Sequence record: OP292222.1
Reading direction: 5' to 3' (one strand)
DNA: 64,000 nucleotides
From: Escherichia phage Esco_phi_B-01
The notes under the pieces are model-generated. The model ran no database searches. It was given only the letters and a program-made list of their open reading frames with translations, and was not told where the DNA came from. Of the stretch, positions 3,608 through 37,312 are shown piece after piece (within the stretch, counting starts at the first letter, position 1; each line of letters starts with the position of its first letter). The translations under genes and the position numbers were made by a program.

Positions 3608-4618
3608 ATGACTCGTACTGAATACATCAATGCCTTTACTAAGTATATCACTGACAATACCCCTCCATTAACCCCATATATGGTAATAGTTTCTAATATC
3701 AATAAATGGGTAGACCAAATTGATGATGCATTATCGCGCTGTTTCAAAGCTGAAATAGAAAAGATTGCAGGGCGTTTGTTTATTCCTGATATCGTAGATA
3801 CATTTAAAGGTTCTCGACTGCTTTCTCGACTGGTCAATAAGGACATCCTTTCTGAGTTCGGTAAAGAGAAATATCCGGGTTCTAACCATGTTGTTAGCTA
3901 CAAATGGTTTGGTGATACCATAAAAGATTATGTCAAAATTAAAGGTATGGACCCTAGTAGTTTATTTCCGCAACGTTGGGTTAGCGAATTCAAGGCTAAC
4001 TCTGCATTAATTCTCAAAGCGGCCTCTAAAACTATAGTTTCCGGTGATTGTCGTACTATTCACCCGATGGCTAATTGCATGATTAAAACAAATAGTTATA
4101 AAGGAAAAGCTATTATTTCTGTTATTTGGTCGCCTAATAGGAAACCTAAAGATGATGCGGAAGTTGTAAAGTATCAAGATATTGCTTACGATACCTTGAA
4201 TACTATCGAACAAGCCTTAGCTTTGATGGATACAGTAGAGAAATATGAGACCCAAGAAGTTAAACACCACTTAGGCTGGAAAGGATATGAAGTTTTAGTA
4301 ACAGTTCGCGAAATCAAATGGCCTGTTCCAAAAACTGACGCTGAAATTTACCAAGAAAAATGTGAGGAAATTGTGAATACTGATAAAGAGCCTGCTACAT
4401 TAGAAGACTTGATTAACGACTTGAACAGCCCTATCATGGCCCATACACCAATTACTAAATCCAAGTTACCGGAAATCGTTGCCTTAGAAAAAGCGTATAA
4501 AGATGCCCTTGCTATCAACAAAAAACTGACCGGACAATATACCGCTGCCAAGAAACTTTGGGAAGAGTCTACCAATCGTTTAGACCGTCTTGAACAGGCT
4601 CTGGAGCTGTTGAAATGA
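3608..4618 (+). CDS. hypothetical protein (336 aa)
   Basis: ORF; start at ATG preceded by ctGAGGAGaatatc; track start 3548 lies inside promoter. Confidence 0.6.
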   Translation: MTRTEYINAFTKYITDNTPPLTPYMVIVSNINKWVDQIDDALSRCFKAEIEKIAGRLFIPDIVDTFKGSRLLSRLVNKDILSEFGKEKYPGSNHVVSYKWFGDTIKDYVKIKGMDPSSLFPQRWVSEFKANSALILKAASKTIVSGDCRTIHPMANCMIKTNSYKGKAIISVIWSPNRKPKDDAEVVKYQDIAYDTLNTIEQALALMDTVEKYETQEVKHHLGWKGYEVLVTVREIKWPVPKTDAEIYQEKCEEIVNTDKEPATLEDLINDLNSPIMAHTPITKSKLPEIVALEKAYKDALAINKKLTGQYTAAKKLWEESTNRLDRLEQALELLK

Positions 4619-4926
4619 AACAGCGTTTAGCTGAAGATATTGCTTCAGCATCTAATACCGGTTTATTGAAATTTATTAAAGCCGAGGATGTTGAAGTTGA
4701 ATTGGTTGGTAAAATTCATGGTTGTGATGATTATGGTGATGCCGTTAATTGGGATGCAGTAATGGCTATGGTCGCACGACGAGAACAAGCTTCTAAGAAT
4801 GTTCCTAACTGTCCTAAGTGTGGCACAGAACAGGTTCAATTGGTCCATTGGCAAACCAGTAATCTTCGATATAAATGCCGCCATTGCAAACACAAATTTG
4901 AGCGAGACGAAAATGGCAAAGCGTAA
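4615..4926 (+). CDS. zinc-ribbon protein (CPKCG ... CRHCKHKF)
   Basis: ORF; paired CxxC motifs near C-terminus. Confidence 0.55.
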
Positions 4927-5149
4927 AGAATATGTAGAGGCTGCCGATAAGGCAGTCCGCGAACTTACTCTGGCTTATTATAAAGAGCATGGTAAATTTC
5001 CGGACAGTTATTCAGTATTGAAATCTGCTTTAACTCGTTCGTATAATAATATACTATCTGATGTGTATGATTTAAAATACGAACACCTAGAAAAATATGG
5101 AACAGAACTTGACCGTTCTGAAGCATTCAAACAAGTATTAGGAATTTAA
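4913..5149 (+). CDS. hypothetical protein (78 aa)
   Basis: internal ATG of track ORF 4799..5149; overlaps end of upstream gene. Confidence 0.4.
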
Positions 5150-5150
5150 A

Positions 5151-5414
5151 ATGTTTAAAGTTTATGGGTACGATTCAAATATTCACCGTTGTGTTTTCTG
5201 TGATAATGCCAAACGTCTACTTGATGTTAAGAAGCAACCTTACGAATTCATTAACGTGATGCCGGAAAAAGGTGTATTTGATGATGAGAAGATTGCTGAA
5301 CTCTTGGCTGCTCTTGGACGTGAGTCTCAAGTAGGTTTGACCATGCCCCAGGTATTTGCTCCAGACGGAACTTCTATTGGCGGCTTTGACCAACTGCGAG
5401 CATATTTCAAATGA
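5151..5414 (+). CDS. nrdC: NrdC-type thioredoxin/glutaredoxin
   Basis: near-identity recalled to T4 NrdC N-terminus (MFKVYGYDSNIH.C..CDNAKRLL); CxxC active site. Confidence 0.9.
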   Translation: MFKVYGYDSNIHRCVFCDNAKRLLDVKKQPYEFINVMPEKGVFDDEKIAELLAALGRESQVGLTMPQVFAPDGTSIGGFDQLRAYFK

Positions 5415-5567
5415 TTGAATTATCGTTGGGTGTTTTGTATCTTATCATCGGTATTGGTTATGCTAGACCCTAGCTAAATTAGATGATTCCGGTGACTTTT
5501 GTTGGTGGCTGACGTCTATGATTTGTTGGCCTTTATTTCTGGTTGGTGCTTCATTCTGGAACTTTAA

Positions 5568-10182: not shown

Positions 10183-10740
10183 ATGACCGAAATTAAACTG
10201 ACTAAAAATAACTATGTAAATAATAAGGAGCTTCTGAAAGCCATTACCCAGTGGAAAACGGAACTCCGAGAAAATACCGACCCTAATAAAATAGTTCGTC
10301 AGAACGACGTTATCGGCTTGGCTATTATGCTCATTGCTGAAGGCCTTTCTAAGCGTTTCAACTTCTCCGGATATACCCAATCTTGGAAGCAAGAAATGAT
10401 TGCTGATGGAATCGAAGCTTCTATTAAAGGCCTTCACAACTTCGACGAAACAAAATACGACAACCCACATGCATATATCACTATGGCTTGTTTTAATGCC
10501 TTTGTTCAGCGTATCAAGAAAGAACGTAAAGAAATGGCAAAGAAATACAGCTACTTCGTCCATAACGTTTATGACGCTAATGACGACGACATGGTAGGTA
10601 TCGCAGATGAAACTTTTATCCAGGATATTTACGACAAAATGACTCAGTACGAAACCTCTTTAGTTAAAGCGCCAGGGTCTGATAAGAGCGCCGAATCTAA
10701 AGTTGGTGAGCTGGATTTTTTATATGGAACTCAAGATTAA
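10183..10740 (+). CDS. 55: late-transcription sigma factor gp55
   Basis: extensive similarity recalled to T4 gp55 ([10 protein letters not shown]..., [41 protein letters not shown]). Confidence 0.93.
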
Positions 10741-21954: not shown

Positions 21955-22455
21955 ATGAAAAAGTTAATTATCGCAATGAGTATGCTCCTATCAGGTTGCG
22001 CGGTCCAATACGGTGATGCAGTTTCGGCTGATGAAGTTGGTAAAGCTCGTATTGCAGCTGAACAGAAACAATTCGACGGCGAAATGAAATTCCGTGCCGG
22101 TTCTGGACTTGTGTATACCCGAGCTAATAATCAATGTGGTAATAACTGTGCAAAATATGCTCAAAGGGAAATCGAATTCCAACGTGAACAAGAGTCTAAG
22201 CGTGAAGAGGTACTAGCCAAACACCAGGCAGAAATGAAGCGCCAAGATGATTTGTACAAAAAGCAGAAACTGTATTCTATGTGTGTAAACCATATCAATC
22301 TACAGATTTCTGTCCATGAGGCTCGTTATTACGAAATGCTCGAAACCGAGAGCTTCGATAAAGCTCGTGATTATAAGAAACAAATCAACAAGCTTAAGAC
22401 CAAAGTGCCTGCTGCAGTAGAACAGTGCATGGAATACGGTAAAGATAAGATTTAA
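21955..22455 (+). CDS. predicted lipoprotein (signal peptide with lipobox LLSGC), coiled-coil rich
   Basis: N-terminal MKKLIIAMSMLLSGC. Confidence 0.6.
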   Translation: MKKLIIAMSMLLSGCAVQYGDAVSADEVGKARIAAEQKQFDGEMKFRAGSGLVYTRANNQCGNNCAKYAQREIEFQREQESKREEVLAKHQAEMKRQDDLYKKQKLYSMCVNHINLQISVHEARYYEMLETESFDKARDYKKQINKLKTKVPAAVEQCMEYGKDKI

Positions 22456-22515: not shown

Positions 22516-24189
22516 ATGAAAAAGGTTGTTATTTTAGGCGCAGGTCTTGGCTCACGGTTGTATCCAATTACTAACGAAATCCCGAAGGTATTGGTTAACT
22601 ATAAACAACATACGGTATTAAAGCATTTGTATGATTTGTATAGTAACCAATCAGATGAAATTATTCTGGTTATTCACAGCAAATTTAACGACCTCGTTAA
22701 AGGCTATATTAAATCCATTAACATGATTACTGGTGATAAGCCTAAATTCACTATTCGTAACGTTGATGTTGCTAATGGTTCAGCTCATGCAATCGATTGC
22801 ATTGCCGAAGATATCATTGGCCATAATGTCCTGTTTAACTGGTGTGACATCATTCCTATCGGTCATAAAGTTGAATGGGGTAACGACTACTGTTATACCT
22901 ATGGAACTGACTGTCGTTTTACATTTGAAGAACCGTACTTACGTGAAATTGGTACTGGTGGCGGTGTAGTTGGTTTGTATCAGGTAGCCAATTGGACAGG
23001 TTTCGACCGTTCTAATTATGGTGAAGACCTTGCTGATAACCTGGATTCAATGGTCTATTTGACCGAACGTAAACTGGATTTTGTAGTTGATGTCGGTGAC
23101 AAATTGAAACTGGCTAAGGCCCATGAAGAATCTGAAATTAACCGTGAATTTAATAAATTAGAATTCACCGAGAATCTGGCTATTAAAGTACCAACTAACG
23201 AATTAGGTAAAGAAATTCAATCTAAAGAAATCAATTGGTATAATTCTATTGATTCTGAATTCGTTCCTAGCATTGTAGACTTTTCTCCAGGCGAATTCAT
23301 TAAAATGGAACGTATCTTTGGTCGAACCATGGCAGATGCCTACCGGTTTATGTCCAAAGAAACTAAAGTCCTCATGGTTTATAAGGTCATTAGTGCATTA
23401 CGTTCATTTGGTGGAACTATTGATAACCCGTCCGATGAGCAATGGTATTCCGATGTTAAGAAAGAAGTATTGGACAAGGTCCTTATTCGTAATGCTTCTA
23501 TTGCTGGATTGATTGAAGGCTTTGCTCCACAGGGCATTACCCATGTTAACGATTTCAAAGTAGGCGACCCTGAAAAACTTCTTCGCCATGCACTAGAAAT
23601 TCTGTCTGAACATAAAGAACCGTACCAACTTATTCATGGCGACCCGCACTACAGTAATATTATGCTGTCGGACGAAGGTGATATTAAAATCATCGACCCA
23701 CGTGGTTATTTCGGTAATAGTTCTAAAGGCCCTGCGATTTATGATGAAGCTAAGGTGCTTTATTCTATCGATGGCTATGACAAATTTAACTCAGACCCTC
23801 TATGGGGCGGATTAACTCGTAACGGAACTCGTGTATTCGTTGATATCGAAAAGATTATGCCTTTAGACGATATCCCTATGTGCACATTTAAGCACAAGCT
23901 CTGGATTGCTGTTATTTGGATGGCTCTGGCAGGTTACTTTAAGAATAACCCTCTGAAAGCTCTAGGTGCTTATTATAACGGTTTGTACCAACTGAGTGTG
24001 CTGCTGAAGCGGCATCCTCGTAAGCGTAAGCTTATTACGGGTGAATTTGTCGATGAAGTTCGTGACCCTATTACGGCTCAAATTATTACTCGTTGTCCTG
24101 ATAAGTGGGTTTTGCTTGACCAGGAAACTGGTGTAAAATATAAACCTACAGGTTCTACTGAACTCCACAAACAATGGAAGAAAATTTAA
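22516..24189 (+). CDS. bifunctional nucleotidyltransferase / protein-kinase-like phosphotransferase
   Basis: N-terminus ILGAGLGSRLYPIT...PKVLV (sugar-phosphate nucleotidyltransferase G-x-G-x-R signature); C-terminus HGDPHYSNIML ... IKIIDPRGYFG (Brenner HxDxxxxN + downstream D, APH/choline-kinase-like); start at ATG after SD gaggaa. Confidence 0.75.
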   Translation: MKKVVILGAGLGSRLYPITNEIPKVLVNYKQHTVLKHLYDLYSNQSDEIILVIHSKFNDLVKGYIKSINMITGDKPKFTIRNVDVANGSAHAIDCIAEDIIGHNVLFNWCDIIPIGHKVEWGNDYCYTYGTDCRFTFEEPYLREIGTGGGVVGLYQVANWTGFDRSNYGEDLADNLDSMVYLTERKLDFVVDVGDKLKLAKAHEESEINREFNKLEFTENLAIKVPTNELGKEIQSKEINWYNSIDSEFVPSIVDFSPGEFIKMERIFGRTMADAYRFMSKETKVLMVYKVISALRSFGGTIDNPSDEQWYSDVKKEVLDKVLIRNASIAGLIEGFAPQGITHVNDFKVGDPEKLLRHALEILSEHKEPYQLIHGDPHYSNIMLSDEGDIKIIDPRGYFGNSSKGPAIYDEAKVLYSIDGYDKFNSDPLWGGLTRNGTRVFVDIEKIMPLDDIPMCTFKHKLWIAVIWMALAGYFKNNPLKALGAYYNGLYQLSVLLKRHPRKRKLITGEFVDEVRDPITAQIITRCPDKWVLLDQETGVKYKPTGSTELHKQWKKI

Positions 24190-24572
24190 TGTCGTATCGA
24201 GTAGAAAATAAGCCACATTTATGTTTTGATATCGATAACACAATCACGATTTGGAACCATGACCGTGATTATGAGAACTTTAAACCGGACACCGAAATGG
24301 TGTCCATGATTAATAAGCTTTATGATGAAGGGTACGAGATTACATTGTTCACCGCGCGTGGCATGACTTCATGTGGCCCAGGTCGAATCTTGGTTGAAGT
24401 AGTTCCTGCCTTGGTTAAGAACCTTGAAAAAATTGGATTGAAATATCACAATTTGCTTACACATAAGCCGAGTTATACTTTTATCATCGATGACCGAGCA
24501 ATCCGTCCTGACCACTTTAAAGAAATGGTTCGTGAAGGAACTCTTGATGGTTATAAGGCCTATCATCCATGA
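24189..24572 (+). CDS. small HAD-superfamily phosphatase
   Basis: motif I FDIDNTIT (DxDxT), motif II LFTARG, motif IV IIDDR; alternative start 24174. Confidence 0.7.
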   Translation: MSYRVENKPHLCFDIDNTITIWNHDRDYENFKPDTEMVSMINKLYDEGYEITLFTARGMTSCGPGRILVEVVPALVKNLEKIGLKYHNLLTHKPSYTFIIDDRAIRPDHFKEMVREGTLDGYKAYHP

Positions 24573-25105
24573 ATCCAAAAATCATTGTTATAGACGGCCC
24601 GGATAATTCCGGGAAGTCCACTTTAATTAAAAATCTGTTATCCAATAAGAAATACCGCCTTATTGATTTTCCTAAAAAGATTAATGGCAAGTGTATTTCA
24701 TTAGGAACTGATAACGATAAGGCTTTAGTTGAAACTCTGTATAAGTTTTTAGACCCTAATTTCGTTTATATCCTTGACCGTGGTTATCCAAGTAATATTG
24801 TTTACTCAGGATTCCTTCGTGGTGAAATGGACCCTTATGTAGAACTGGAAGATTGGAAAGGGTTTAAATCTGAATTTAACGTTATCGAGGTTATTTTAAC
24901 TCGCAACCCATTAGACGAAGACTTCGAAGACGACCTTATTAAATTAACCGAAGATGAGTTCAACCTAACTATCCGGCAATACGAAACATGTTTTGAAAAC
25001 GTGTTTAAAATCTTAAATCATGACGGCCATAATAATTTGCTTAATGTTGATATGGTAGAATTAAAACGTCTGAACGAATATATTGAAAATAAGGTGAATA
25101 AATGA
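24569..25105 (+). CDS. thymidylate-kinase-like P-loop NMP kinase
   Basis: P-loop IVIDGPDNSGKST and DRGY..S..Y motif resembling Tmk DR(Y/H) region. Confidence 0.65.
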   Translation: MNPKIIVIDGPDNSGKSTLIKNLLSNKKYRLIDFPKKINGKCISLGTDNDKALVETLYKFLDPNFVYILDRGYPSNIVYSGFLRGEMDPYVELEDWKGFKSEFNVIEVILTRNPLDEDFEDDLIKLTEDEFNLTIRQYETCFENVFKILNHDGHNNLLNVDMVELKRLNEYIENKVNK

Positions 25106-25800
25106 AACACATTACCGCTGTTAGTTTTGAAAATGCATTTAAACAAATGAACGAAGAAATCCTGGAAGCTCCACAGTTTGCAGTTGATTCTCGTATCGGA
25201 CGTTGTTATGAAATTGGTTCTGCTTCGGTAGAAGTACTGGATGCAAGCACCTATAAATTCACCGACCCACGTATTAATCGTATTAGTTATGAATATGCCG
25301 AATCCTTTTGGAAATTTATGATTTCTGGTGGTACTGACGCTGCCGAAGCATTTAAGGAATACCCTAATGTTGCTAAGTTCATTGATAAGCCGAAAAGTGA
25401 CGTATTGCCTGCAAACTTCAACACTTTCTATGGACCTCGAATTGTGGCCCAACTCCCAGCCCTACTTAAAGAGCTTAAAGAAAAGGCTAACTCGCGAAGA
25501 GTTGTGTTCCAGATTCTCCAAGAACAAGACCAAGCCCTCCTTGATTCTGACGAATCCTTAGAATATCCGTGTACCGATTCGGTAACGTATTATATTCGTG
25601 ACGGACGTTTGTATGCACACACCCATATGCGTTCACAGAACTGCGCTGTTGTTATGCAGCTGGATTTCTATCTGCAGGGTAAACTGATGGCATTTATTGC
25701 TGAACAGTGTGGTGTCGGTTTAGGTACATATTCCCACACCATGGTAAGTGCACACGTGTTTGAACGCGATTTTGACTACGTCCGAGGTTTCCTGAAATGA
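25102..25800 (+). CDS. 42: deoxycytidylate hydroxymethylase (thymidylate synthase superfamily)
   Basis: SRR, catalytic Cys in PCTDS, YYIRDG, MRSQN, and Asp in QLDFY at the position that confers cytosine specificity in T4 gp42; Glu/Trp in AESFWKF. Confidence 0.82.
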   Translation: MKHITAVSFENAFKQMNEEILEAPQFAVDSRIGRCYEIGSASVEVLDASTYKFTDPRINRISYEYAESFWKFMISGGTDAAEAFKEYPNVAKFIDKPKSDVLPANFNTFYGPRIVAQLPALLKELKEKANSRRVVFQILQEQDQALLDSDESLEYPCTDSVTYYIRDGRLYAHTHMRSQNCAVVMQLDFYLQGKLMAFIAEQCGVGLGTYSHTMVSAHVFERDFDYVRGFLK

Positions 25801-26690
25801 GTTTGTTTATCGTTCCTATTTTCAGTATGCGTAGTTACGAAACAGGTGAATATGCCGTCCTTAAGGACGGCAATTTTCAACTCCATTTAAATCGTGCTCG
25901 TCCAGGTGATTATCTGGCTTATCCTAGAAATTCGAGCGATATCAAAGAATGCATTGAATTATTCCCGGAACTGAATTTCGTACCACTTTGGTATAAAGAA
26001 AATGCTTATGAAACCCGTAAACATTTCTGGTCTGAAAATGAGTTTGTAGTCGATTCACTAATCGAATACTACGATTGCTCAGGACTGGTAACTGATATCA
26101 CCGGTTATGATGGTGCTCACACTGTACAATTCAACTTTAATATCACAATGGACCCTGAAGTTCCTCGTTATTATATCGACGAGTTCATTGATATTGATGT
26201 GGCTTCAGTTGAACGTTCACTTTATACTACAGTCCTGAATCAATGCCAGAAAGACGTCCTGGTGTCACGAGGTGCATCCTCTGATAAGATTTTTGTAGAC
26301 CAAAAGGTAATTAATCCTGCAGTAATTGAGCGTTACTCTGAAGGTCTAGCGCCTATTAAAATTGATGGTATTTTCCATCCATTCCGTATTTCGGATAAGT
26401 GCTATCAATTCGAAAGAGTTGTAGACCAAGCTGCCGCTGAAGGTGCTCGTCTTTATATCACTGACCCGAATGATTCATTTAAGCGTGAAGACTATCGTCC
26501 TGATGTAGAGATTATTAAATTCAAACCGAGTAAGGTTGAATATTATCAAATTCTGAAATCAAGACCACATATCATTTATCATGAGAACCCAGGTTTAGTA
26601 TTCCATCCTGGTCTGGCTGAATTCATTTATTTCGGTGCCAATATTCATTCTGAATACGAAATGCCACGTTATGAGGACGTAGTATGCTAG
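25797..26690 (+). CDS. hypothetical protein (297 aa) occupying the beta-glucosyltransferase slot between 42 and uvsX
   Basis: ORF; no recognisable motif; position only. Confidence 0.55.
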   Translation: MSLFIVPIFSMRSYETGEYAVLKDGNFQLHLNRARPGDYLAYPRNSSDIKECIELFPELNFVPLWYKENAYETRKHFWSENEFVVDSLIEYYDCSGLVTDITGYDGAHTVQFNFNITMDPEVPRYYIDEFIDIDVASVERSLYTTVLNQCQKDVLVSRGASSDKIFVDQKVINPAVIERYSEGLAPIKIDGIFHPFRISDKCYQFERVVDQAAAEGARLYITDPNDSFKREDYRPDVEIIKFKPSKVEYYQILKSRPHIIYHENPGLVFHPGLAEFIYFGANIHSEYEMPRYEDVVC

Positions 26691-26816
26691 GTCCTCTATT
26701 GCTTTTTATAGGTTTGTTATTATTCTCTTTCGGAGCCTTGCTATTACTAGTGTGGCTCGAGAAACGAGAAGTTCGGAAGATAGTCGATAAGGCTATCAAC
26801 CGAGGAATTAAGTAAT
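26685..26816 (+). CDS. small membrane peptide (43 aa)
   Basis: hydrophobic ORF overlapping upstream stop. Confidence 0.35.
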
Positions 26817-33219: not shown

Positions 33220-33313
33220 GTTATCCTCCTGTTAAATTAATATTTATTCGCTTTAATCTAGCAGTTTATAATTATCTAACTTACTAACAAATGAATTGAT
33301 AAGGAAAAATATA

Positions 33314-33835
33314 ATGGCTCATTTTAATGAATGTTCTCAACTGATTGCCGGTGCCGATAAAGCTGAAGAAGCTTATTTTAATGCTCTGATTCACGAAGAT
33401 AAAGACCCTCTGCAGGTTATGCTTGATATGCAGAAATCTTTGCAGGTTCGTTTAGCTAAAGATAAGCCTGAATATAATCGTCATCCTGATGATTTGGCCA
33501 CTGCGGGTGAAGTTGTCGATTGGCTTCGCAACCAGAAAGATTATATTGATGACGAATTCCGTGAACTTCTGACTTCTCTTGGTGGTATGAGCAATGGTGA
33601 AAAAGATGCATCTGCAGTATGGAAGCCTTGGAAAGCTCAACATGCTGAACGTCGTGAAACCCTGATTAACGATTTGTCTCCTGAAGACCAGCTCGAAATT
33701 AAATTCGAAATGATTGATATTCTGCACTTTGTTCTGAATATGTTCCAGGGTCTTGGACTGACTGCTGAAGAAATCTTTAAACTGTATTATCTTAAAAATG
33801 CCGAGAACTTTGCTCGTCAAGACCGAGGTTATTAA
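33314..33835 (+). CDS. 56: dCTP/dUTP pyrophosphatase gp56 (MazG-like)
   Basis: strong similarity recalled to T4 gp56 (MAHFNEC..., DPLQVMLDMQ, CIDDEFRELLTSLG, EEIFKLYYLKN). Confidence 0.9.
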   Translation: MAHFNECSQLIAGADKAEEAYFNALIHEDKDPLQVMLDMQKSLQVRLAKDKPEYNRHPDDLATAGEVVDWLRNQKDYIDDEFRELLTSLGGMSNGEKDASAVWKPWKAQHAERRETLINDLSPEDQLEIKFEMIDILHFVLNMFQGLGLTAEEIFKLYYLKNAENFARQDRGY

Positions 33836-36073: not shown

Positions 36074-36643
36074 ATGAACATCGAACAAAAATGTCTTTAT
36101 CAAGACCGAATCAATTCCAAATTTTCAAAATCTGAACAAGCGTTGTTAGAGAAATGTCTGGATGCCAAAAAAGACCCTAACTTACATTATGACCTAGACA
36201 AACTAGTTCGTAAACATGTTACTTCGGCCGTTCCGGTAGAGCTTTATCGTGGGATTACCACCAGAGAACTTGAGCAATTAGAGCTCCTTTCAGTAGGGTG
36301 CCACTGGTCTCCTGGTCGGGTTACTTCTTTTAGTACACAATACTCTCAGGCTTGCCAGTTCGCAGGGTCATGGGAATATGGAACCAAAACCATTTTAAGT
36401 CTCAGGAATGCACCCTTCATTTTTGACTACTACAATCATGCTATCGACCTTGTTCTTGCAGGGAATGCGGACGAACTTGAAATAGATGAAACCCGTATTG
36501 ACCTCTATGATATGGTCGAAACCGAATGTGAGTTCATGGTCTCTAGTCTATCACGGTTCGAGATTGTGGAAATCGAAACTATCAAAAGGGACCCATACGA
36601 CATCGAGTACAAAATAATTCATTTAAAAATGTTGGATTTTTAG
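36074..36643 (+). CDS. modB: ADP-ribosyltransferase, ModB-like
   Basis: R-S-ExE triad: LYRG, SFS, ECE; position upstream of dda as in T4 (which paralog is modA vs modB is assigned by order only). Confidence 0.7.
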   Translation: MNIEQKCLYQDRINSKFSKSEQALLEKCLDAKKDPNLHYDLDKLVRKHVTSAVPVELYRGITTRELEQLELLSVGCHWSPGRVTSFSTQYSQACQFAGSWEYGTKTILSLRNAPFIFDYYNHAIDLVLAGNADELEIDETRIDLYDMVETECEFMVSSLSRFEIVEIETIKRDPYDIEYKIIHLKMLDF

Positions 36644-36697: not shown

Positions 36698-37312
36698 ATG
36701 TTATATCCAAGCCATAAATTAGCAGAATTTATCAACAATGCCAAATGCGATGATTTCCGTGAGAATACTCAGATAGAAATTGATGAGGTGTATTCTGATT
36801 TAGAACAGAGCACGCTCTGGCAGTGTATGGAAAATAAACCTGATTCTATCCAGGAAACTCTGAACAAAATTATTCGTAAGAACCTGACTTCTGTAGTGCC
36901 TGATAAGCTCTATCGCGGTATATCTAAAAAGACCCTGAAGTATCTAGAGTCCACAATGTGTGTGGGTGCGGTAATTGAATTCGACCGCGTGATGAGCTTC
37001 TCTAAAGACTTCAACGTAGCAAGGAATTTCGCATCTTATAACTTCTACGGCACATTTAATATCTTTTGTATTAATGATGCGCCATTTGTGTACAATTATC
37101 AGGAAGAAATCTTTAAAATGTTATGTGCTGCGCCCCCTGAAGAGTTCCCAGGCGCATTTCCTGAATCTACCCGTGTAGCAAACTTACAATTAATTAATGA
37201 TGAAGATGAGATGATGTTCCCTGCGGGAACTACGCTGCGCGTAGACTCTATTGAGAGAAATCCTAAATGGAATAATTACACCATTTGGAATCTTTCCGTT
37301 CTTTCTTACTGA
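36698..37312 (+). CDS. modA: ADP-ribosyltransferase, ModA-like
   Basis: R-S-ExE triad: LYRG, SFS, EDE; paralog of upstream gene. Confidence 0.7.
   Translation: MLYPSHKLAEFINNAKCDDFRENTQIEIDEVYSDLEQSTLWQCMENKPDSIQETLNKIIRKNLTSVVPDKLYRGISKKTLKYLESTMCVGAVIEFDRVMSFSKDFNVARNFASYNFYGTFNIFCINDAPFVYNYQEEIFKMLCAAPPEEFPGAFPESTRVANLQLINDEDEMMFPAGTTLRVDSIERNPKWNNYTIWNLSVLSY

Follow-up and report, generated by a model that had tools for sequence, protein, structure and literature searches.

The window analysed here, a stretch of 64,000 nucleotides from Escherichia phage Esco_phi_B-01 (OP292222.1), stems from a JS98-like Dhakavirus (98.6% nucleotide identity) and bears at positions 25102 to 25800 of the plus strand an ORF of 232 aa with ATG start, the product of which is 100% identical to JS98 orf39. 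At both ends, this ORF shares a 4-nt ATGA overlap with the adjoining gene, and homologs of RB69 gp52:53, gp51, gp45 and gp46:47 directly adjoin it with overlapping stop and start codons. The following genes are relevant:

22516..24189, plus strand, bifunctional sugar kinase and sugar-1-phosphate nucleotidyltransferase, homolog of AfhE and RB69 gp52:53 (Pfam, tblastn, phrog_4098)
24174..24572, plus strand, HAD-family sugar phosphatase, homolog of AfhF and RB69 gp51 (RB69p051 similarity, TIGR01689)
24569..25105, plus strand, P-loop nucleotide-kinase-like protein, homolog of RB69 gp45 (tblastn, phrog_761)
25102..25800, plus strand, predicted dCMP 5-hydroxylase (5hodCMP synthase, AfhB ortholog; identity, AF2 model, signature residues)
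25797..26690, plus strand, putative DNA arabinosyltransferase 1, homolog of RB69 gp46:47 (tblastn, phrog_3891)
33296..33835, plus strand, gp56-like dCTPase/dUTPase (NTP pyrophosphohydrolase; phrog_173, E 1.6e-46)

The AfhE-like ORF is open from 22486, while 22516 is the start annotated in JS98 and also that of the alignment with RB69. Its product, bearing Pfam domains NTP_transferase (residues 13–110) and APH kinase (residues 356–427), is 41–44% identical to RB69p053 and p052 (tblastn), matches phrog_4098 (E 5e-268) and is predicted to make UDP-arabinofuranose; the role of AfhE in arabinose activation is summarized in PMC13326640. The phosphatase shows 61% identity to RB69p051 (tblastn) and a below-cutoff match to the capsule-biosynthesis phosphatase model TIGR01689 (E 1e-14), its HY126 homolog AfhF converting Araf-1,5-bisphosphate to Araf-1-phosphate (summarized in PMC13326640). 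For the kinase-like protein, 38% identity to RB69p045 (tblastn), a match to phrog_761 'thymidylate kinase' (E 2e-39) and weak, below-cutoff matches to the NCBIfam cmk and dTMP-kinase models were found. Downstream of ORF 25102..25800, parts resembling RB69p047 (70% identity over 25797–26333) and RB69p046 (65% over 26346–26684; both tblastn) form one uninterrupted ORF, which matches phrog_3891 (E 3e-159) and gave no match in Pfam or NCBIfam. For the encoded enzyme, transfer of the base-proximal sugar onto 5-hydroxycytosine is predicted; this role of ara-GT1 has been proposed, not demonstrated, and activity of the first arabinosyltransferase, including that of DLP3, has not yet been reconstituted in vitro (PMC13326640). 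Based on knowledge of the T4 pathway and on RB69p028 in Table 1 of PMC13326640, the gp56-like enzyme encoded at 33296..33835 would supply dCMP and bar dCTP from phage DNA.

Judged from its sequence, the 232-aa protein is a member of the thymidylate-synthase superfamily, with similarity far exceeding chance expectation (Pfam PF00303, E 3.6e-13; PDB sequence match, E 2e-125). It shares 80% identity with RB69 gp48 (E 5e-146) and likewise 80% with HY126 AfhB (PDB 9IQU), both experimentally shown to be flavin/O2-dependent dCMP 5-hydroxylases (PDB 9IQC/9IQU; NAR 2026, PMC13326640). For RB69 gp48, 18O2 labelling established that the oxygen comes from O2, and FMN was detected (PMC13326640), while the crystal structure 9IQC, whose sequence corresponds at 100% to a protein of phage HY126 (tblastn), contains FAD. 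An AF2 model of the ORF product, computed with an alignment of 101 sequences, reached a pLDDT of 88 (38 in single-sequence mode), and its top Foldseek match is 9IQC, titled 'Monooxygenase dependent on riboflavin with dCMP and FAD' (TM 0.96), with 9IQU, titled 'phage HY126 dCMP hydroxylase-AfhB', also among the top matches. Moreover, a hydroxylase-clade HMM made solely from members sharing less than 75% identity with the protein scored it at 407 bits, in contrast to 46 bits with a gp42-clade HMM on which T4 gp42 itself reaches 440 bits. Identity amounts to 49–99% within the hydroxylase clade versus 19–26% to 120 gp42-clade proteins, with 24% to T4 gp42, and, in a tblastn search with the protein as query, the 50 sampled records listed do not include T4 at E ≤ 1e-3. 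We therefore regard the product of ORF 25102..25800, at a probability of roughly 0.9, as a phage dCMP 5-hydroxylase (5hodCMP synthase), namely the Dhakavirus ortholog of RB69 gp48 and HY126 AfhB. From the 80% identity and the signature residues described below, flavin/O2 chemistry may be inferred also for this protein, making it a predicted flavin-dependent member of the superfamily.

In the original prediction, the protein was considered to have kept two residues of T4 gp42, the catalytic Cys and the Asp specifying cytosine, at a constant offset of nine residues. This is corroborated by BLASTP, MAFFT and hhalign, which agree in placing Cys157 (PCTDS, codon 25570–25572) opposite T4 Cys148 and E. 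coli ThyA Cys146 and Asp188 (QLDFY, codon 25663–25665) opposite T4 Asp179 and ThyA Asn177. Hence, the specificity position is occupied by Asp, not by Asn, and both residues are, like Glu154 (codon 25561–25563) at the position of ThyA Leu143, invariant in 120 of 120 hydroxylase-clade homologs. Since Cys157 and Asp188 align with their T4 counterparts, dCMP is supported as the substrate nucleotide, and the earlier assignment of cytosine as the substrate base stands, the 80% identical RB69 gp48 and HY126 AfhB likewise using dCMP (PMC13326640; PDB titles). RB69 gp48 and DLP3 gp80 have been described with the same N177D and L143E substitutions (PMC13326640). Besides, the phosphate-binding arginines of ThyA correspond to Arg132/Arg133 (ThyA Arg126/Arg127) and Arg177 (ThyA Arg166), and Tyr110 corresponds to ThyA Tyr94.

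Two further positions separate the hydroxylase from the gp42 clade. Asn180 of the RSQN motif (Arg177-Ser178-Gln179-Asn180, codons 25630–25641) aligns with ThyA Asp169 and with Asp171 of the T4 motif RSND, a column that holds Asn in 120/120 hydroxylase-clade and Asp in 120/120 gp42-clade sequences. Val184, another key residue, is found at the position of ThyA Gly173 and T4 Gly175, where Val versus Gly splits 120 proteins of the former clade from 120 of the latter with zero exceptions, Gly being present in all 120 gp42-clade sequences. Asn in place of ThyA Asp169 (D169N) is a published diagnostic of 5hodCMP synthases and foretold 5hodC production in every homolog tested (PMC13326640).

A Glu/Trp pair had also been assigned to the AESFWKF motif (Glu67, Trp70), which is probably a false match, as these residues lie at an offset of +7. 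At +9, where conservation patterns match, Phe69, Phe72 and Ala91 face T4 Glu60, Trp63 and Trp82 (ThyA Glu58, Trp61 and Trp80) in the hhalign and MAFFT alignments, and the profile-profile alignment places the invariant Phe69 and Phe72 opposite the invariant T4 Glu60 and Trp63. Glu67 is conserved as Glu in 67 of 101 clade members and, with another alignment, in 86 of 120. The phmmer alignment to MilA, instead, pairs Glu67/Trp70 with the Glu/Trp of that enzyme.

These residues also bear on the idea that the ORF encodes a divergent, shortened T4-type gp42, thus a folate-dependent enzyme making 5-hydroxymethyl-dCMP, with the cassette glycosylating hmC. Such a reading was adopted in the original prediction, by Petrov et al. 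(2010) and in several GenBank annotations. In line with it are the map position, the same as that of T4 gene 42 between imm/43 and DNA glycosyltransferase/uvsX, the presence of Cys, of the specificity Asp and of an acidic residue aligned with ThyA Leu143, the gene 42 allele ascribed to JS98-type phages in the 2010 review (Petrov et al., 2010) and the label 'dCMP hydroxymethylase' on some GenBank records of close homologs. We nevertheless consider it very improbable in view of the low identity and HMM score relative to T4 gp42, of Asn for Asp at ThyA Asp169 and Val for Gly at Gly173, of Phe69 and Ala91 probably standing opposite the invariant Glu60 and Trp82, and of the RB69 and HY126 enzymes making 5hodCMP with O2-derived oxygen. 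Accordingly, the name gp42 hydroxymethylase is not supported for this protein, its best structural matches being 9IQC and 9IQU. The attribute 'shortened' is correct with respect to length (232 versus 246 aa), but the protein is not a trimmed gp42, belonging to a different subfamily with another N-terminus, other loops and another C-terminus. Likewise, hydroxymethylcytosine as the DNA base is not supported; the relatives RB69, DLP3 and Mosigvirus NP are without hmC, and a previous claim that RB69 contains arabosyl-hmC has since been termed erroneous. A second, T4-type gp42 was not detected in the window and the rest of a JS98 genome (tblastn, E ≤ 0.01).

Many database records label homologs as thymidylate synthase, and the PF00303 match would allow for thymidylate synthase or dCMP methylase activity. 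Asp instead of Asn at ThyA Asn177 and the acidic residue at the Leu143 position speak against both activities, as do only 18% identity to E. coli ThyA and scores far below cutoff with all NCBIfam thymidylate-synthase equivalogs (for example, 61.6 versus 174.6 bits and 39.7 versus 327 bits). In addition, the JS98-type genome contains only two genes of the superfamily, ORF 25102..25800 and a genuine td gene whose product is 47% identical to ThyA. With Asp188, the sub-cutoff scores and the separate td, this assignment is effectively refuted and its probability practically nil.

For the predicted dCMP 5-hydroxylase, a reaction sequence can be proposed from the homologs and from the T4 and RB69 pathways. 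As is common to all enzymes of the thymidylate-synthase fold, Cys157 would attack C6 of dCMP and thereby render C5 nucleophilic, and Asp188 would read the N3/N4 face of cytosine. Methylene-tetrahydrofolate would be replaced by a reduced flavin, loosely bound, which together with O2 would then deliver one oxygen atom to the activated C5, and elimination of the Cys would release 5-hydroxy-dCMP, a flavin/O2 route that 18O2 labelling, detection of flavin and the FAD-containing crystal structure have shown for the homologs. Subsequently, 5hodCTP might be formed by the dNMP kinase of the phage (gene 1) and an NDP kinase of the host, and, with dCTP being removed by the gp56-like dCTPase, the phage polymerase would incorporate 5hoC instead of C. 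The co-transcribed, overlapping genes upstream, encoding the AfhE-like kinase/uridylyltransferase and the AfhF-like phosphatase, may convert host arabinose-5-phosphate to UDP-arabinofuranose, from which the downstream glycosyltransferase would join the sugar to the 5-OH.

Because AfhE and AfhF homologs and a single arabinosyltransferase are encoded nearby and no other gp42 homolog is found in the JS98-type genome, the modified base is most likely arabinosyl-5-hydroxycytosine and not a hydroxymethylcytosine derivative. The neighbouring cassette thus most likely decorates 5-hydroxycytosine via an ether bond at C5, as direct chemistry has established for RB69, DLP3 and Mosigvirus NP, in which arabinose is ether-linked to C5 without a methylene bridge (PMC13326640). 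With a single homolog of the arabinosyltransferases being encoded, mono-arabinosyl-5-hydroxycytosine is the probable product, sugar and chain length being predictions in view of the AfhE homolog showing only 41–44% identity and of the cluster genes missing compared to RB69. Nucleoside analyses or enzyme assays of any Dhakavirus, JS98 included, were not found in the searchable literature.

The reduced Dhakavirus cluster comprises, besides the hydroxylase and the kinase-like protein, one glycosyltransferase, AfhF and an AfhE that has diverged strongly. The JS98-type genome is devoid of the arabinose-5-phosphate isomerase, gp49, gp50 and the second glycosyltransferase of RB69, and T4 beta-gt as well as RB69 gp3, gp49, gp50 and gp55 were not found by tblastn (E ≤ 0.01) in the window and the rest of the JS98 genome. 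Conceivably, albeit with low likelihood, this stripped-down 5-hydroxycytosine glycosylation cluster might install a sugar or linkage unlike the arabinofuranose chains of RB69, HY126 and DLP3; if true, the DNA of JS98-type phages would contain yet another 5-O-glycosyl-cytosine, one not described so far. That the ORF encodes a dCMP 5-hydroxylase while the cassette puts a non-arabinofuranose sugar or a different chain on 5-hydroxycytosine appears improbable, too. Besides the gene losses, this would be in line with the AfhE homolog being far more diverged from RB69 than the hydroxylase (80%), the glycosyltransferase (65–70%) and the phosphatase (61%), and hexoses on 5hoC are known from Rhizobium phage RL38J1. 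Against this, conservation relative to RB69 is good for both the first glycosyltransferase and the phosphatase. E. coli possesses arabinose-5-phosphate isomerases of its own, KdsD and GutQ, so that a phage gene for this step is dispensable. Shewanella phage Thanatos, encoding one syntenic ara-GT, is mono-arabinosylated, and Dhakaviruses are named among the groups carrying the syntenic arabinosylation cluster (PMC13326640).

An assignment to 5-hydroxycytosine rather than 5-hydroxymethylcytosine alters the DNA chemistry, with the ether bond straight at C5 and no methylene bridge, and shifts the cofactor demand of infection away from folate towards flavin and O2. A further consequence concerns the host defences able to detect the phage, namely CRISPR and type IV restriction enzymes such as GmrSD/BrxU and McrBC. 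The GenBank labels 'gp42 / dCMP hydroxymethylase' or 'thymidylate synthase' for JS98-type therapeutic coliphages are misleading, and Asn at ThyA position 169 permits confident re-annotation. The phage dCMP 5-hydroxylase family as such is already published and Dhakaviruses are listed in the 2025–2026 papers, beyond which nothing is added here.

Among known systems, the AfhB group (RB69 gp48; HY126 AfhB, PDB 9IQC, 9IQU and 9IR2; DLP3 gp80) resembles ORF 25102..25800 in its length class (232–238 aa), in full-length identity (80% to RB69 gp48 and HY126 AfhB) and predicted fold (TM 0.96), and in having the Cys, N177D, L143E and the diagnostic D169N in common. The neighbours (AfhE, AfhF, kinase-like protein and ara-GT1) and the slot between DNA polymerase and uvsX are the same as well. 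In arrangement, the clusters differ in the kinase-like gene, which precedes the hydroxylase here but is located beyond the glycosyltransferase, beside uvsX, in RB69, and the Dhakavirus cluster is reduced, lacking the arabinose-5-phosphate isomerase, gp49, gp50 and the second arabinosyltransferase.

With T4 gp42 (PDB 1B5E, 1B49), the protein shares the thymidylate-synthase fold, dCMP as substrate, the Cys and Asp at +9, an acidic residue at ThyA Leu143, the map position and the role as first committed step of cytosine replacement. It deviates by Asn for Asp171 and Val for Gly175, probably also by Phe for Glu60 and Ala for Trp82, and by the missing C-terminal extension; moreover, the AfhB homologs use flavin and O2 instead of CH2-H4folate and water, resulting in a product with the OH directly on C5 without a methylene bridge. 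The next-best solved structure is the CMP 5-hydroxymethylase MilA (PDB 5B6D, 5JNH; query-normalized TM 0.87, 24% identity, phmmer E 4e-13), also a member of the superfamily specific for cytosine nucleotides. Unlike the phage protein, however, MilA is a folate-dependent bacterial hydroxymethylase of about 330 aa acting on the ribonucleotide CMP in biosynthesis of the antibiotic mildiomycin, not in DNA modification. Finally, E. coli ThyA and phage td resemble the protein in fold, catalytic Cys, phosphate-binding arginines and Tyr94 (equivalent to Tyr110), but are characterized by Asn177 conferring uracil specificity, Asp169, Leu143, a long C-terminal folate-closing segment and reductive methylation.

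The ORF at 25102..25800 codes, with a probability of about 0.9, for a dCMP 5-hydroxylase. A database search with the protein matched Pfam Thymidylat_synt (E 3.6e-13), and in the PDB sequence search the entries 9IQU, 9IQC and 9IR2 were found at E about 2e-125, followed by MilA at 4e-13, while T4 gp42 (1B49) reached just 1.5e-4. The 9IQU sequence is encoded, at 100% identity, by Escherichia phage HY126. An AlphaFold2 model (101-homolog alignment, pLDDT 88) has as best structural matches 9IQC, "Monooxygenase dependent on riboflavin with dCMP and FAD" (TM 0.96), and 9IQU, "phage HY126 dCMP hydroxylase-AfhB with substrate dCMP". Ranked after these are MilA and thymidylate synthases, and T4 gp42 entries are absent from the best 50 matches. 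RB69 gp48, a member of the AfhB family, is 80% identical to the window protein (E 5e-146). A thymidylate synthase function was rejected, every NCBIfam thymidylate-synthase equivalog being far under cutoff.

For comparison with dCMP hydroxymethylases, 120 homologs of the window protein (49-99% identity to it) and 120 T4 gp42 homologs (57-96% identity to T4) were aligned jointly with ThyA. The two clades have the catalytic Cys and specificity Asp in common, along with the arginines that bind phosphate, but the window protein shows only 19-26% identity to the gp42 clade. With an HMM of its own clade, built solely from members <75% identical to it, its score is 407 bits, versus 46 bits with the gp42-clade HMM, in which T4 gp42 itself reaches 440.

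Residues at signature positions (ThyA numbering) in the window protein, its hydroxylase clade and the gp42 clade
ThyA Asp169: window Asn180; hydroxylase clade Asn 120/120; gp42 clade Asp 120/120
ThyA Gly173: window Val184; hydroxylase clade Val 120/120; gp42 clade Gly 120/120
ThyA Leu143: window Glu154; hydroxylase clade Glu 120/120; gp42 clade Asp 120/120
ThyA Cys168: window Gln179; hydroxylase clade Gln 114, Glu 6 (n = 120); gp42 clade Asn 120/120
ThyA Cys146: window Cys157; Cys 120/120 in both clades
ThyA Asn177: window Asp188; Asp 120/120 in both clades

5-Hydroxy-dCMP (5hodCMP) is formed from dCMP by RB69 gp48 and by gp80 of Acinetobacter phage DLP3, with the oxygen derived from 18O2 and a flavin loosely bound to the enzymes, and the DNA of both phages bears arabinose ether-linked straight to cytosine C5 (Lee et al., NAR 2026, PMC13326640). 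An independent Mosigvirus NP study describes the earlier arabinosyl-hydroxymethyl-cytosine assignment for RB69 as erroneous. Asn at the ThyA Asp169 position is the diagnostic signature, from which 5-hydroxy-deoxycytidine production was rightly predicted in nine further diverse homologs (PMC13326640). The original prediction of a shortened gp42 hydroxymethylase is supported with respect to cytosine, whereas the resemblance to RB69 gp48, the Asn180 signature and the low gp42-clade score argue against hydroxymethylation and hydroxymethylcytosine.

At the residue level, the motifs on which that prediction was based, PCTDS (Cys157), QLDFY (Asp188) and AESFWKF (Glu67, Trp70), are present in the ORF. 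Pairwise BLASTP against T4 gp42 gives 25% identity across 159 residues, and BLASTP, MAFFT and profile-profile alignments all place Cys157 and Asp188 at the claimed +9 offset from T4 Cys148 and Asp179. With E. coli ThyA included in the MAFFT alignment, and by profile-profile comparison, these correspond to Cys146 and Asn177, and inferring cytosine specificity from Asp at the latter position is sound. The proposed Glu/Trp pair is doubtful, as the offset of Glu67 and Trp70 is +7 instead of +9. The region concerned comprises:
25288..25320 (+), helix residues 63-73, including Phe69, Phe72 and Met73
25372..25374 (+), codon of Ala91

According to hhalign and MAFFT, the clade-invariant Phe69 faces T4's invariant Glu60, Phe72 (Trp in 9/101 members) faces Trp63, and Ala91 faces Trp82. 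In this +9 register, Met73, near-invariant or invariant among the hydroxylases, faces the gp42-clade invariant Tyr64, and conserved and variable positions match well along the helix (hhalign, profile comparison). Glu67 belongs to the polar side of the helix, which is variable, and just 67 of 101 homologs have Glu there. A phmmer alignment to MilA follows another register, in which the Glu and Trp of MilA pair with Glu67 and Trp70. Hence, the TS-type catalytic Glu has probably been lost, and the sequences suggest, within an ambiguous helix alignment, that it disappeared together with the folate-contacting Trp at a change of cofactor. In thymidylate synthase, Asp169 binds the pterin. Replacement of Asp169, Gly173 and probably Glu58 and Trp80 would fit a switch from folate to flavin.

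As shown for close homologs, Cys157 would attack C6 of dCMP, with Asp188 recognizing the cytosine, reduced flavin and O2 would deliver one oxygen atom to C5, and Cys elimination would yield 5hodCMP. By analogy with the pathways of T4 and RB69, the dNMP kinase of gene 1 (found in JS98) and host NDK would form the triphosphate, dCTPase would remove dCTP, the polymerase would incorporate 5-hydroxycytosine, and a glycosyltransferase would add arabinofuranose from UDP-arabinofuranose made by AfhE and AfhF.

Homologs of the RB69 cassette were found by tblastn of RB69 proteins against the window, with consistent Pfam, NCBIfam and PHROG results, the dCTPase being a PHROG match:
22516-24186 (+), RB69 gp52:53 homolog (41-44% identity), bifunctional sugar kinase and nucleotidyltransferase, AfhE in HY126
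24195-24569 (+), RB69 gp51 homolog (61%), HAD phosphatase, AfhF
24575-25060 (+), RB69 gp45 homolog (38%), nucleotide-kinase-like protein
25102..25800 (+), dCMP 5-hydroxylase candidate, 232 aa, ATG start
25797-26684 (+), RB69 gp46 and gp47 homolog (65-70%), proposed first DNA arabinosyltransferase
33296..33835, gp56-like dCTPase

Since successive genes overlap, by 16 nt between 22486/22516..24189 and 24174..24572 and by 4 nt where the preceding stop overlaps the starts of 24569..25105, 25102..25800 and 25797..26690, the five genes form one tightly packed plus-strand unit. The AfhE-like ORF opens with ATG 22486, but probably starts at ATG 22516 (MKKVVILGAG...), as in the JS98 annotation and the RB69 gp53 alignment. 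The adjacent RB69p046 and p047 (4598-5498 of the RB69 sequence) map to the single uninterrupted 297-aa ORF 25797..26690 (+), which supports the attribution of this split in RB69 to a sequencing error (PMC13326640).

The window has the T4-like order 45-44-62-regA-43-imm ... uvsX-40-41, in which ORF 25102..25800 fills the gene 42 slot and a glycosyltransferase-sized gene the adjoining beta-gt slot. Between imm and the AfhE homolog, a 166-aa ORF (21955..22455, +; JS98 orf43) matches phrog_1754, with no match in Pfam or NCBIfam; in RB69, the arabinose-5-phosphate isomerase is encoded roughly here. A very hydrophobic 43-aa ORF (26684..26815, +; MLGPLLLFIGLLLFSFGALLLLVWLEKREV...) separates the arabinosyltransferase homolog from uvsX, and the corresponding JS98 gap (10291-10494) has no annotated CDS. 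Farther downstream, tandem paralogous ORFs of 189 and 204 aa (36074..36643 and 36698..37312, both +) each match phrog_832, a family of RNA polymerase ADP-ribosylases, in its C-terminal part and are presumably a ModA/ModB pair.

When the window was tiled with the rest of JS98 for a whole-genome view, ORF 25102..25800 and td were the only TS-superfamily genes, and tblastn at E<=0.01 found neither T4-type gp42 or beta-gt nor homologs of RB69 gp3 (second arabinosyltransferase), gp49, gp50 and gp55 (arabinose-5-phosphate isomerase). As E. coli itself makes arabinose-5-phosphate via KdsD and GutQ, a phage isomerase is not essential. Because Shewanella phage Thanatos, having a single syntenic arabinosyltransferase, carries a single arabinose, mono-arabinosyl-5-hydroxycytosine is predicted as the base in Esco_phi_B-01.

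JS98, JS10 and other Dhakavirus genomes share 98.6% nucleotide identity with a 4.5-kb region of the window, and JS98 orf39, annotated as RB69 orf048c-like, is 100% identical to the window protein. Petrov et al. (2010) had treated the JS98 gene as allelic to T4 gene 42, the same view as in the original prediction, and many GenBank records name the gene thymidylate synthase or dCMP hydroxymethylase. Work from 2025-2026 has replaced this reading for RB69, HY126, DLP3 and relatives, and Dhakaviruses are explicitly named among the Straboviridae groups carrying the syntenic cluster (PMC13326640). Accordingly, the enzyme family of the Esco_phi_B-01 protein was known beforehand, and genomes of this phage lineage had been sequenced.
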